Shown one piece after another: positions 6,533-24,714 of a DNA stretch of 28,000 bases. Position 1 is the stretch's first letter, and the number at the start of each line of letters is the position of its first letter. The DNA lies in the NCBI GenBank assembly GCA_014905635.1, contig JABVCE010000078.1, forward strand, positions 62,001-90,000, read 5' to 3'. Below the pieces are notes generated by a model. The model was not told the DNA's origin and did no database searches. It worked only from the letters and a program-made list of their open reading frames with translations. The translations under genes and the position numbers were made by a program. This DNA is from Scenedesmus sp. PABB004. Its lineage: Eukaryota.

Positions 6533-6931
6533 ATGTCAACTGTAAATGAAATCATTGAAAAATTAAAAACATTAACGTTATTAGAAGCTTCAGAATTAGT
6601 TTCACAAATTGAAGAAACTTTTGGTGTAGATGCATCAGCTCCAGTTGGTGGTGGTGTAATGATGGCAGCAATGCCTGCTGCAGGTGGTGCTGAAGCTGCA
6701 CCAAAAGAAGAAGAGAAAACATTATTTGATGTTGTATTAGAAGAAATTCCAGCTGATAAAAAAGTTGGAATTTATAAAGTAGTTCGTAATATTGCAAATA
6801 TTGCAGTAAACCAAGTAAAAGAATTTACAGGAACTTTACCAAAAGCATTAAAAGAATCAATTTCAAAAGAAGAAGCTGAAGCTGCAAAACAACAGTTAGA
6901 AGAAGCTGGTGCAAAAGTGAAAATTGTTTAA
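6533..6931 (+). CDS. rpl12: 50S ribosomal protein L12
   Basis: [29 protein letters not shown], Ala-rich hinge, [30 protein letters not shown]. Confidence 0.97.
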
Positions 6932-8457: not shown

Positions 8458-8547
8458 CGGAGAGAGAGGGATTCGAACCCTCGGTACGAAAGAATCTCGT
8501 ACAACGGATTAGCAATCAGCCGCTTTCGACCACTCAGCCATCTCTCC
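8458..8547 (-). tRNA. trnS: tRNA-Ser(GCU)
   Basis: Reverse complement GGAGAGATGGCTGAGTGGTCGAAAGC...TT-GCT-AA...long variable arm...GGTTCGAATCCCTCTCTCTCCG. Confidence 0.97.
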
Positions 8548-9309: not shown

Positions 9310-10129
9310 CATGTATTACCTTTTTTTGGTAATTCTCTCCCCCATTTTCATGGAGGCATGGACTATGTCTTCATCTTTGAGAGAGAATCTCAAAGAGTTG
9401 GCGTATTATAAAATCTTTCACACAAGATCTTATCCCAGCAATTTTTTCAATTGCTGAAGTCTCTACGGGGACGACAATATTTCTAGATTATCTTCAGCTC
9501 TTTTAGCTCTTTTGCTACAACTTCTGCAGTAATTTCTCTTTTTTTTGAATCATTTAACTCAGACACATGGTCCGAAATGCGACAAAGTTCAATGAACAAG
9601 AGTGCAGAATTTTTGGAAGAAGGTAATTGTTCAATTATACGAAGAAGAAGATCTGCTTGTTTTTTCTTCATACGAAGGAAGGGAGAAAGTTGTTGCAAAA
9701 AAAAATAGACACATCTTGTTTCTGTTAAGACGTAATCAGAGATATTTCCTCGATCACGAACGCTTCCATATCCAATCGTTTCTCGGATATGTTCTAAGAA
9801 ATGTCGTCTTTTTTTGAGTTGTGTGATTTGAAGAGTGCATCGAATTTGAAATTTATACACATAATCAGATCGACGAACAATTTGTGCAAGAATACTCCCA
9901 TCACCATCGATGAGGCCAGCTAAATATATAATATCATCTTTGTTTATATTTTTCATAAGTGTTTTCTAAGAAAATTTGTTTTTACTGAATTCGAAAAAAA
10001 ATTTATGAGAACCAAAATATTGAAGTCTTCCCTCGGCGTTGCCATCTATAGCAGTTCAACTATAGGAAGGTTTCACCGATATAAGCCAATACTCTATCTA
10101 TATCGCTATAGATAAACGCAGTAGTGTTT
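9310..10129 (-). mobile_element. Group I intron in rrl at E. coli position 2593 (820 nt)
   Basis: Splits exon sequence CAGAACGT|CGTAAGACAGTTCGG; 5' exon ends in U, intron ends in G; S-like element AAGACATAGTCC; contains a LAGLIDADG ORF. Confidence 0.95.
9483..9956 (-). CDS. Single-motif LAGLIDADG homing endonuclease, I-CreI-like
   Basis: YLAGLIDGDGSILAQI...YKFQIRCTLQITQ...LSPFLRMKKKQADL; located in the L2593 intron, the known site of the I-CreI family. Confidence 0.95.
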   Translation of the reverse strand: MKNINKDDIIYLAGLIDGDGSILAQIVRRSDYVYKFQIRCTLQITQLKKRRHFLEHIRETIGYGSVRDRGNISDYVLTETRCVYFFLQQLSPFLRMKKKQADLLLRIIEQLPSSKNSALLFIELCRISDHVSELNDSKKREITAEVVAKELKELKII

Positions 10130-10155
10130 ACGTTCTGAACCCAGCTCACGTACCA

Positions 10156-10189
<34 letters not shown>

Positions 10190-10193
10190 ACTA

Positions 10194-10234
<41 letters not shown>

Positions 10235-10352
10235 TTCTCGTCGATGTGAACTCTTGGAGAAGATCAGCCTGTTATCCCTAGAGTAACTTTTATTCGTTGA
10301 GCGACGGCCCTTCCACACGGCACCGTCGGATCACTAAGGCCAGCTTTCGCTC

Positions 10353-10392
<40 letters not shown>

Positions 10393-24053: not shown

Positions 24054-24175
24054 ATTTTTTTGTCACCTTCAGGTGAGGAAAAAGTTCTTCGCTTTTTTCA
24101 CTTTTTGAGAGAAAAAAGCGAAGCCTTTTTTGCAAGTTTTGAAACTTGTCCTGTTCTTTTGTTTCTTTCGTGAAA

Positions 24176-24260
24176 GAAGCCTTTCAATTTGAAAAAATTC
24201 TTGAAGGTTTTGAAGCCGAAATTTTTTCTTTTTCTTGAAGAACACAAATTTTAGGGTAAC
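24176..24260 (+). other. 3' half (domains V and VI) of a degenerate, probably trans-spliced group II intron in rpl32
   Basis: DV-like hairpin GAAGCCTTTCAATTT-GAAA-AAATTCTTGAAGGTTTT with AGC triad and GAAA tetraloop; DVI CCGAAATTT...AAATTTT-A-GG with bulged A 8 nt from the end; terminal AAC. Confidence 0.8.
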
Positions 24261-24406
24261 AAAAACGTACATCAAAATCAAAAAAAAATATTCGTAAGCA
24301 TGCTTGGAAACAAAAAGTTGCAAAAAGAGCAACACAAGCTCTTTTTTTAGCAAAATATGTTTTAAGCACGCAAGAAGGAACATCAACTGAAAAACAAGAA
24401 AGTTAA
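24261..24406 (+). CDS. rpl32: 50S ribosomal protein L32, exon 2 (missing the first 13 nt, ATG GCN GTN CCN A)
   Basis: AA AAA CGT ACA TCA... gives (K)KRTSKSKKNIRKHAWKQKVAKRATQALFLAKYVLSTQEGTSTEKQES*, matching the L32 N-terminus MAVPKKRTSKSKK; no local start codon. Confidence 0.92.
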
Positions 24407-24714
24407 ACTTCTTTTTGCGTTCTTTGTGGAGCTTGTTTTTTTGAAAACAAAAGACAAAAAAAGCTCAACAAAGAACGTAGAGCTTTCTATGTGAAAAAAA
24501 CTTTTCGCTATTCAATCAAAATAGAAAACAAAAAAAATTGTCGTTCACACTTTGAAAAGAAAAAAAGTGTGGCCACAGAAAACCAAAAGAATCTTTTCTT
24601 GGAACAAAAAACGAAATGAGGCAGTTCGAGCATTGGAAATAGAGGTGAGCTGCCCTGCAAAGAGAAAAAAGCAACTTTCGCTTTTCTTAAAGCGAAAGTT
24701 GCTAAAAAAAATTT

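Follow-up and report, generated by a model that had tools for sequence, protein, structure and literature searches.

Trans-spliced psaA group II introns occur in the plastids of Chlamydomonas and of Sphaeropleales. Trans-spliced organellar group II introns are ordinarily broken in domain IV, which leaves a short 3' half with the tail of that domain and domains V and VI. In domain VI of group II introns an adenosine is bulged out 7-8 nt before the 3' splice site, and such introns usually end in AY. A trans-spliced intron in rpl32 was reportedly announced for Jenufa minuta by Turmel et al. in 2020. Trans-splicing of psaA is mentioned in two further sources (PMC5437862; PMC6525593), and Table S1 of the second of these (Fucikova, Lewis & Lewis 2019) enters 'TR 12' for rpl32 of Tetradesmus obliquus and the majority of the remaining Sphaeropleales, and 'TR 13' for that of several further taxa, while its legend states that the first rpl32 exon is usually unannotated because it is short (PMC6525593). 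A 2024 paper on 13 Tetradesmus strains describes rpl32 as a two-exon gene whose exon 1 lies in the small single-copy region and whose exon 2 lies in the large one (PMC10899504), and in 2008 the gene had been listed as lost from the plastomes of Scenedesmus and Chlamydomonas (PMC2442088). The statement in the original prediction that such an intron had probably been described already, in lineages allied to Sphaeropleales, is borne out by the table and the strain descriptions in these papers (PMC6525593; PMC10899504). The rpl32 trans-spliced intron type is already known, and the locus described here adds at most one more species to it.

The DNA analysed (the window, 28 kb in full length) is a fragment of a chlorophycean plastid genome, in which translations supplied the names of all genes except rpl20, rpl32 and the RNAs. 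Its gene order, from translations and RNA matches, is:

first part: rpl2 (3' part), rps19, rps14, trnG, atpA, cemA, rpl12, trnS, rrl, trnA, trnI, rrs
continued: psbC, trnH, psbA with an intron ORF, rps11, trnY, rbcL, rpl20, the rpl32 half, psbK, psbH, psbB

Since the nearest named L20 proteins are those of Scenedesmaceae (Scenedesmaceae sp. YH-2023b and Coelastrella saipanensis, 89% each; Tetradesmus arenicola, 88%; Asterarcys, 86%; Coelastrum microporum, 83%; best match overall, 91% identical), the plastome is assigned, by protein likeness, to a member or close ally of the Scenedesmaceae (Sphaeropleales) that is distinct from each of these named species. The window also contains rpl12 (6533-6931, plus strand), which Table 2 of an earlier compilation lists for Scenedesmus and not for Chlamydomonas (PMC2442088), and its presence fits the placement in Sphaeropleales.

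Several other elements were seen along the window. A 157-codon ORF on the minus strand (9483-9956) with a LAGLIDADG-like motif (...YLAGLIDGDGSI...) lies just past the 3' end of rrl (match at 10082-12861) and is probably the homing-endonuclease gene of an rRNA-operon intron or spacer. The psbA gene is interrupted (18549-20677, plus strand): its first ORF runs from the exon into a GIY-YIG-like endonuclease region ('GLYMIRC...YYGES') and psbA resumes at about 20138, which looks like an intron whose homing-endonuclease ORF is fused in frame to the upstream exon. The Rfam match to IsrR at 16298-16484 (plus strand, 183.5 bits), antisense to psbC, probably reflects the likeness between psbC and isiA sequences and no real antisense RNA gene. 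A match to the Rfam family Plastid-psbI-rps4 3'UTR at 8458-8512 (plus strand; 75.7 bits, cut-off 68) runs antisense over trnS(gcu); the same pairing of this family with a tRNA-Ser recurs below threshold in the relatives' loci L036, L041 and L045, and the family model may partly mirror a tRNA-Ser.

The region between rpl20 and the end of rpl32 is made up as follows:

23709..24053, plus strand: rpl20, 114 codons and stop (Pfam Ribosomal_L20, 139.9 bits)
24054..24149, plus strand: spacer with three stem-loops, at about 24054-24085, 24087-24123 and 24132-24149
24150..24176, plus strand: conserved block ahead of domain V, ending ...CCTGTTCTTTTGTTTCTTTCGTGAAAG, from the alignment with relatives
24177..24210, plus strand: group II intron domain V, 34 nt, from the alignment with relatives and the covariance model match
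24211..24260, plus strand: junction (24211-24213), domain VI (24214-24257) and intron end AAC (24258-24260)
24261..24406, plus strand: rpl32 exon 2, an L32 frame without a start codon; stop TAA at 24404-24406
24412..24483, plus strand: long inverted repeat just past the rpl32 stop, with spurious Rfam matches to microRNA precursors

[quoted passage not shown]

The reading frame of exon 2 had been predicted to start mid-codon at 24261, directly after ...GGGTAAC, and to be absent from the ORF track, and translation confirms both. The two bases from 24261 are the end of codon 5, followed by KRTSKSKKNIRKHAWKQKV..., so the first four and a third codons are missing from the frame in the window. Positions 24257-24406 on the plus strand translate to QKRTSKSKKNIRKHAWKQKVAKRATQALFLAKYVLSTQEGTSTEKQES between two stop codons, and the translated exon 2 reads QKRTSKSKKNIRKHAWKQKV...QES, likewise enclosed by stops; the first of these, TAA at 24257-24259, is in frame and abuts the CAA AAA CGT of exon 2. 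The frame is absent from the ORF list because neither ATG, GTG nor TTG stands ahead of the conserved KRTSKSKK in it. The Pfam profile Ribosomal_L32p (PF01783) matches the exon 2 peptide over profile positions 5-47 of 56 with 18.7 bits, below its cut-off of 21.3, and a joined Tetradesmus protein scores above that cut-off (29.2 bits). In a protein search (E ≤ 0.01) the peptide is 60-89% identical to 15 L32 or L32-like proteins, seven of which carry the L32 name. The named deposited homologues start with MAVPKKRTSK, the gene-caller products of unannotated contigs with ...ILGSQKRTSK. These upstream extensions of some relatives' frames would suit translation of unspliced exon 2 from a local non-standard start. 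Such a start is barely credible, given that an in-frame TAA immediately precedes the frame both in the window and in 39 of the 42 relatives' loci that are split in the same way. The 'ILGSQ' of the gene-caller products is no protein but what the 3' strand of domain VI and the last bases of the intron give on translation, its 'ILG' being conserved as RNA, and a later start such as the ATT at 24290 would remove the invariant KRTSKSKKN.

A scan of metagenome contigs yielded 80 related rpl32 loci, of which 42 are cut at the same site as the window and 38 are contiguous. All 38 contiguous loci read ATGGCNGTNCCN-AAR at the cut point, with lysine at codon 5, in an unbroken ATGGCNGTNCCNAAR-AAR-CGN, whereas the split loci have a near-invariant ...TTAGGTTAAC at the cut, followed by AAAAACG. 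The exon 2 frame is open for 47-68 codons in 37 split loci and runs off the contig end in the other five, and the first 12 residues are nearly invariant across the loci. Ahead of exon 2, by 37-207 nt, the window and 40 of the 42 split loci share the string GGTTT-N-GAAKCCGA, in which domain V ends, the junction follows and domain VI begins; the pattern is unmatched in L016 and L017. Among chlorophycean plastid contigs from the environment, salt-lake samples included, split rpl32 is common (42 loci within L001-L045).

The hairpin at 24177-24210 has the features that define domain V of group II introns, namely a length of about 34 nt, the catalytic AGC triad (24178-24180), a GNRA-type loop (GAAA, 24191-24194) and a 2-nt bulge in the 3' strand (24200-24201). 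Its lower helix has nine positions, eight of them paired and one a CxU mismatch (24185/24202), and its upper helix five pairs; the AU-rich hairpin with AGC triad and GAAA loop that the original prediction had placed at 24176-24211 is the same element extended by one G.U pair. Domain VI pairs positions 24214-24223 with 24247-24257 and has one GxG mismatch (24215/24256); the bulged A that had been expected 8 nt from the splice site is found as A24253, the eighth base from the intron end and a candidate branch point. The intron terminus is ...GGGTAAC at 24260, so that 24214-24260 combines an adenosine bulged within 7-8 nt of the end with an AY ending, as in other group II introns. No Rfam group II family matches the window, whether the gathering score is applied or E values up to 10 are allowed; the window's domain V is too A+U-rich for the curated models. 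In three of ten relatives' loci the group II D5 model (RF04357) hits the homologous hairpin below its threshold (40.5, 30.4 and 28.2 bits, cut-off 53). The lack of an Rfam match in the window and the two mismatches, CxU and GxG, weigh against the reading as a group II intron half.

Conservation of this structure was assessed in an alignment of 25 rows, comprising the window and 24 of the 42 split loci. The 18 loci left out are eight duplicates or near-duplicates (L003, L007, L019, L024, L032, L035, L037, L040), eight with long inserts in domain VI (L002, L005, L014, L021, L023, L026, L029, L030), and L016 and L017. The 24-pair structure, which was drawn from the same sequences and is therefore somewhat favoured, has standard pairs in 92.0% of its 600 cells, compared with 23.8-58.1% in controls with the 3' partners slid by 1-3 columns, and 13 of the 24 pairs are changed on both sides (74 cells); even with that advantage, the gap to the slid controls and the number of double changes are large. 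The covariation score is 0.394 against a shuffle mean of 0.175, and none of 500 shuffles reaches it. Helix 1, in domain V, has 14 pairs with 92.9% of cells paired and nine pairs changed on both sides, among them GCC/GGU replaced by GCU/AGU or GCCC/GGGU; helix 2, in domain VI, has ten pairs with 90.8% of cells paired and four changed on both sides, and two of its pairs are G-C in most loci and A-U in the window and its nearest relatives. A covariance model (R1) built from the 24 relatives only, with the window left out and with eight exon bases that add a few bits, matches 24166-24268 with 80.8 bits (E 5.9e-16), the next best of the 17 matches listed scoring 20.1 bits. Since a model made from relatives alone finds the site at this score, the window's intron site is, as far as sequence can tell, beyond chance. 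The insertion point and the homologous domains V and VI, seen in the 42 loci and in the R1 match, assign it to the rpl32 site-13 trans-spliced intron of Chlorophyceae.

These data also bear on whether the frame could be a decaying pseudogene that has lost its start, with L32 now supplied by the nucleus. The window frame has no local start codon, rpl32 was once scored as lost from the Scenedesmus and Chlamydomonas plastomes in the comparison already cited (PMC2442088), and a nuclear Rpl32 is described as replacing the plastid gene in one non-photosynthetic chlamydomonadalean (PMC8928634). A pseudogene is nevertheless highly improbable, as the first 12 residues are nearly invariant, the frames are open in all 42 split loci and a noncoding paired structure upstream is kept with compensatory changes, as it would not be in a dead gene.

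The trans-spliced reading places the remainder of the gene and of the intron elsewhere in the plastome. An exon of the form ATG GCN GTN CCN A had been predicted to be absent from the window, and this holds: ATGGCNGTNCCNA does not occur in the 28 kb even with one mismatch (0.49 chance matches expected), nor did looser scans give a candidate. L041, a brine metagenome contig, is the sole locus among those examined that has exon 1, with ATGGCTGTACCAA at 35-47 followed by GTGCGAC. It lies on the same strand as exon 2 and 2.96 kb upstream of it, with trnT (+), trnR (-), trnS (-) and rpl20 (+) in between. Along L041:35-3000, exon 1 and GTGCG (35-52) are thus followed by trnT, trnR, trnS, rpl20, domains V-VI and exon 2, an arrangement that could be either an ancestral near-cis state or a re-joined one.

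In L041 the intron starts with GTGCG, the canonical 5' end of group II introns, and since GTGCG begins right past base 13, the 5' boundary lies after that base. Together with the ATGGCNGTNCCN-AAR of all 38 contiguous loci, the ATGGCTGTACCAA/GTGCG boundary supports the predicted split after 13 nt. An element UUGGUA that is able to pair with the last six exon bases was read by eye in L041 and is at chance level only. The two halves are complementary over 13 nt at most, in a stretch that stops 2 nt short of domain V; this length by itself is not significant, as 34 of 200 shuffles give at least 13 nt, and the stretch is no more than a lead. When the L041 5' half was compared by blastn with the window and with every locus, all matches were short and A+T-rich (E ≥ 3e-4), and no second 5' half emerged. 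The pattern of exon 1 plus GTGCG was also found in 116 genome-contig and 68 viral-contig stretches; these belong to bacterial, archaeal and viral records, are ascribed to chance occurrence of a 15-base pattern and were rejected as candidates, none resembling the L041 5' half by blastn and only four having a G+C content below 0.36.

The same intron might instead have its junction after base 12, in which case exon 2 would begin at C24260 and the protein would read MAVPQK. The CAA is in frame, and the bulged A24253 would become the seventh base from the intron end, a distance that is also acceptable for group II introns. Group II introns usually end in AY, which the AC of the base-13 junction fits better than the AA that a base-12 junction would leave. 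Lysine is moreover present at codon 5 in all 38 contiguous homologues, the deposited Tetradesmus proteins read MAVPKK, and in L041 GTGCG begins right after base 13, all of which makes the earlier junction very unlikely in spite of the 'TR 12' entered for Sphaeropleales in Table S1 of the 2019 study (PMC6525593).

On the upstream side, the 3' half preferred here, with its junction after base 13, lies just behind rpl20. The stop codon of rpl20 ends at 24053 and is separated from domain V by 123 nt, in line with the roughly 120 nt given by the original prediction. The minimum-energy fold of 24054-24262 has -56.5 kcal/mol (z -2.72). The three hairpins at 24054-24149 show no conservation in an alignment with five relatives and are lineage-specific; they would represent either 3'-end or processing hairpins of rpl20 or variable filler of domain IV. 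Among the window's nearest relatives the spacer aligns only over its last 25-30 nt, next to domain V, and 24150-24176 would be made up of the 3' strand of the domain IV base helix, with its partner strand in the 5' half, and of the junction with domain V. The original prediction had called the intron half very reduced and without a maturase, of which the shortness of the 3' half stands, but not the notion of an unusual reduction, since trans-spliced group II introns broken in domain IV usually look like this; 'minimal' is a fair description of the 3' half, but not one that marks an oddity.

The association with rpl20 extends beyond the window. A same-strand rpl20 lies upstream in 35 of the 42 split loci, while the seven split loci with no rpl20 match have between 149 and 1539 nt of upstream DNA, an appreciable stretch being present just in L008 (985 nt) and L038 (1539 nt); rpl20 was found in none of the 38 contiguous loci within the DNA present around each. 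Wherever a split locus has sufficient DNA on that side, L008 and L038 excepted, rpl20 is the gene directly ahead of domain V. Between its stop codon and domain V there are as few as 22 nt (L045) or 29 nt (L018) and as many as 1153 nt, and because this spacer is so short in some lineages, a separate promoter is unlikely. Co-transcription of exon 2 with rpl20 would be the economical reading. A promoter and terminator scan of 23300-24700 gave no promoter-like site on the plus strand between rpl20 and exon 2, a result that is uninformative as the scan finds fewer sites than its own shuffles. Likewise uninformative on expression or habitat are 20 freshwater or other metatranscriptome runs, which share at most 0.33 of the sampled words with the stretch. 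Downstream, the inverted repeat at 24412-24483, whose long hairpin accounts for the spurious microRNA-precursor matches, would serve as the 3'-end stabilising stem-loop of the predicted rpl20-rpl32 transcript.

In the proposed mechanism, one RNA would run from rpl20 through the 3' intron half, which comprises the tail of domain IV with domains V and VI, into rpl32 exon 2, and a second RNA, transcribed from elsewhere in the plastome, would bring the 13-base exon 1 (ATGGCNGTNCCNA) with GUGYG and domains I-III behind it. The two molecules would come together by way of tertiary contacts and the helix of domain IV. Attack on the 5' splice site would come from the 2'-OH of A24253, and exon 1 would then be joined to A24261, giving an mRNA that starts with MAVPKKRTSK. 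A more speculative extension, which we regard as possible though doubtful, is that rpl20 in effect sits within domain IV of the rpl32 intron, so that the tail of the rpl20 mRNA forms the catalytic core and splicing couples two ribosomal-protein messages. In the literature passages that cover rpl32 trans-splicing, in sources other than Turmel et al. 2020, no statement was met on a linkage between rpl20 and the rpl32 intron. The one thread of this analysis that might be new is the near-universal nesting of rpl20 directly ahead of domain V, taken with the near-cis layout of L041.

The value of the result lies mainly in annotation. With an exon 1 of 13 bases and an exon 2 without a start codon, rpl32 is easily missed, and where the split is recognised, false gene losses and false calls of rpl32 pseudogenes do not arise. 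The 42 split loci, the covariance model of domains V-VI and the linkage to rpl20 together make a simple finder of exon 2 for unannotated chlorophycean plastid contigs, while the knowledge of group II introns is unchanged by the present result.

Compared with the described systems, the locus shares with the psaA introns of Chlamydomonas and Sphaeropleales the division of a plastid group II intron into separately transcribed halves and a short 3' half without a maturase gene, but the gene and site are different, the 3' half is fused to the tail of rpl20 and exon 1 has 13 bases. With the rpl32 of Jenufa, to go by the title of the paper, it has in common the gene, the kind of split, a very short exon 1 and an exon 2 that lies elsewhere; Jenufa, however, is placed in Chlorophyceae incertae sedis, whereas the window is Scenedesmaceae-like. 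Within the same family-level group it resembles the rpl32 of Tetradesmus and other Sphaeropleales, with proteins 74-81% identical over exon 2 and a deposited N-terminus of MAVPKKRTSK, although neither the L32 nor the L20 protein of the window is identical to that of any named species (L20 at most 89%) and the table of 2019 gives site 12 rather than 13 (PMC6525593).
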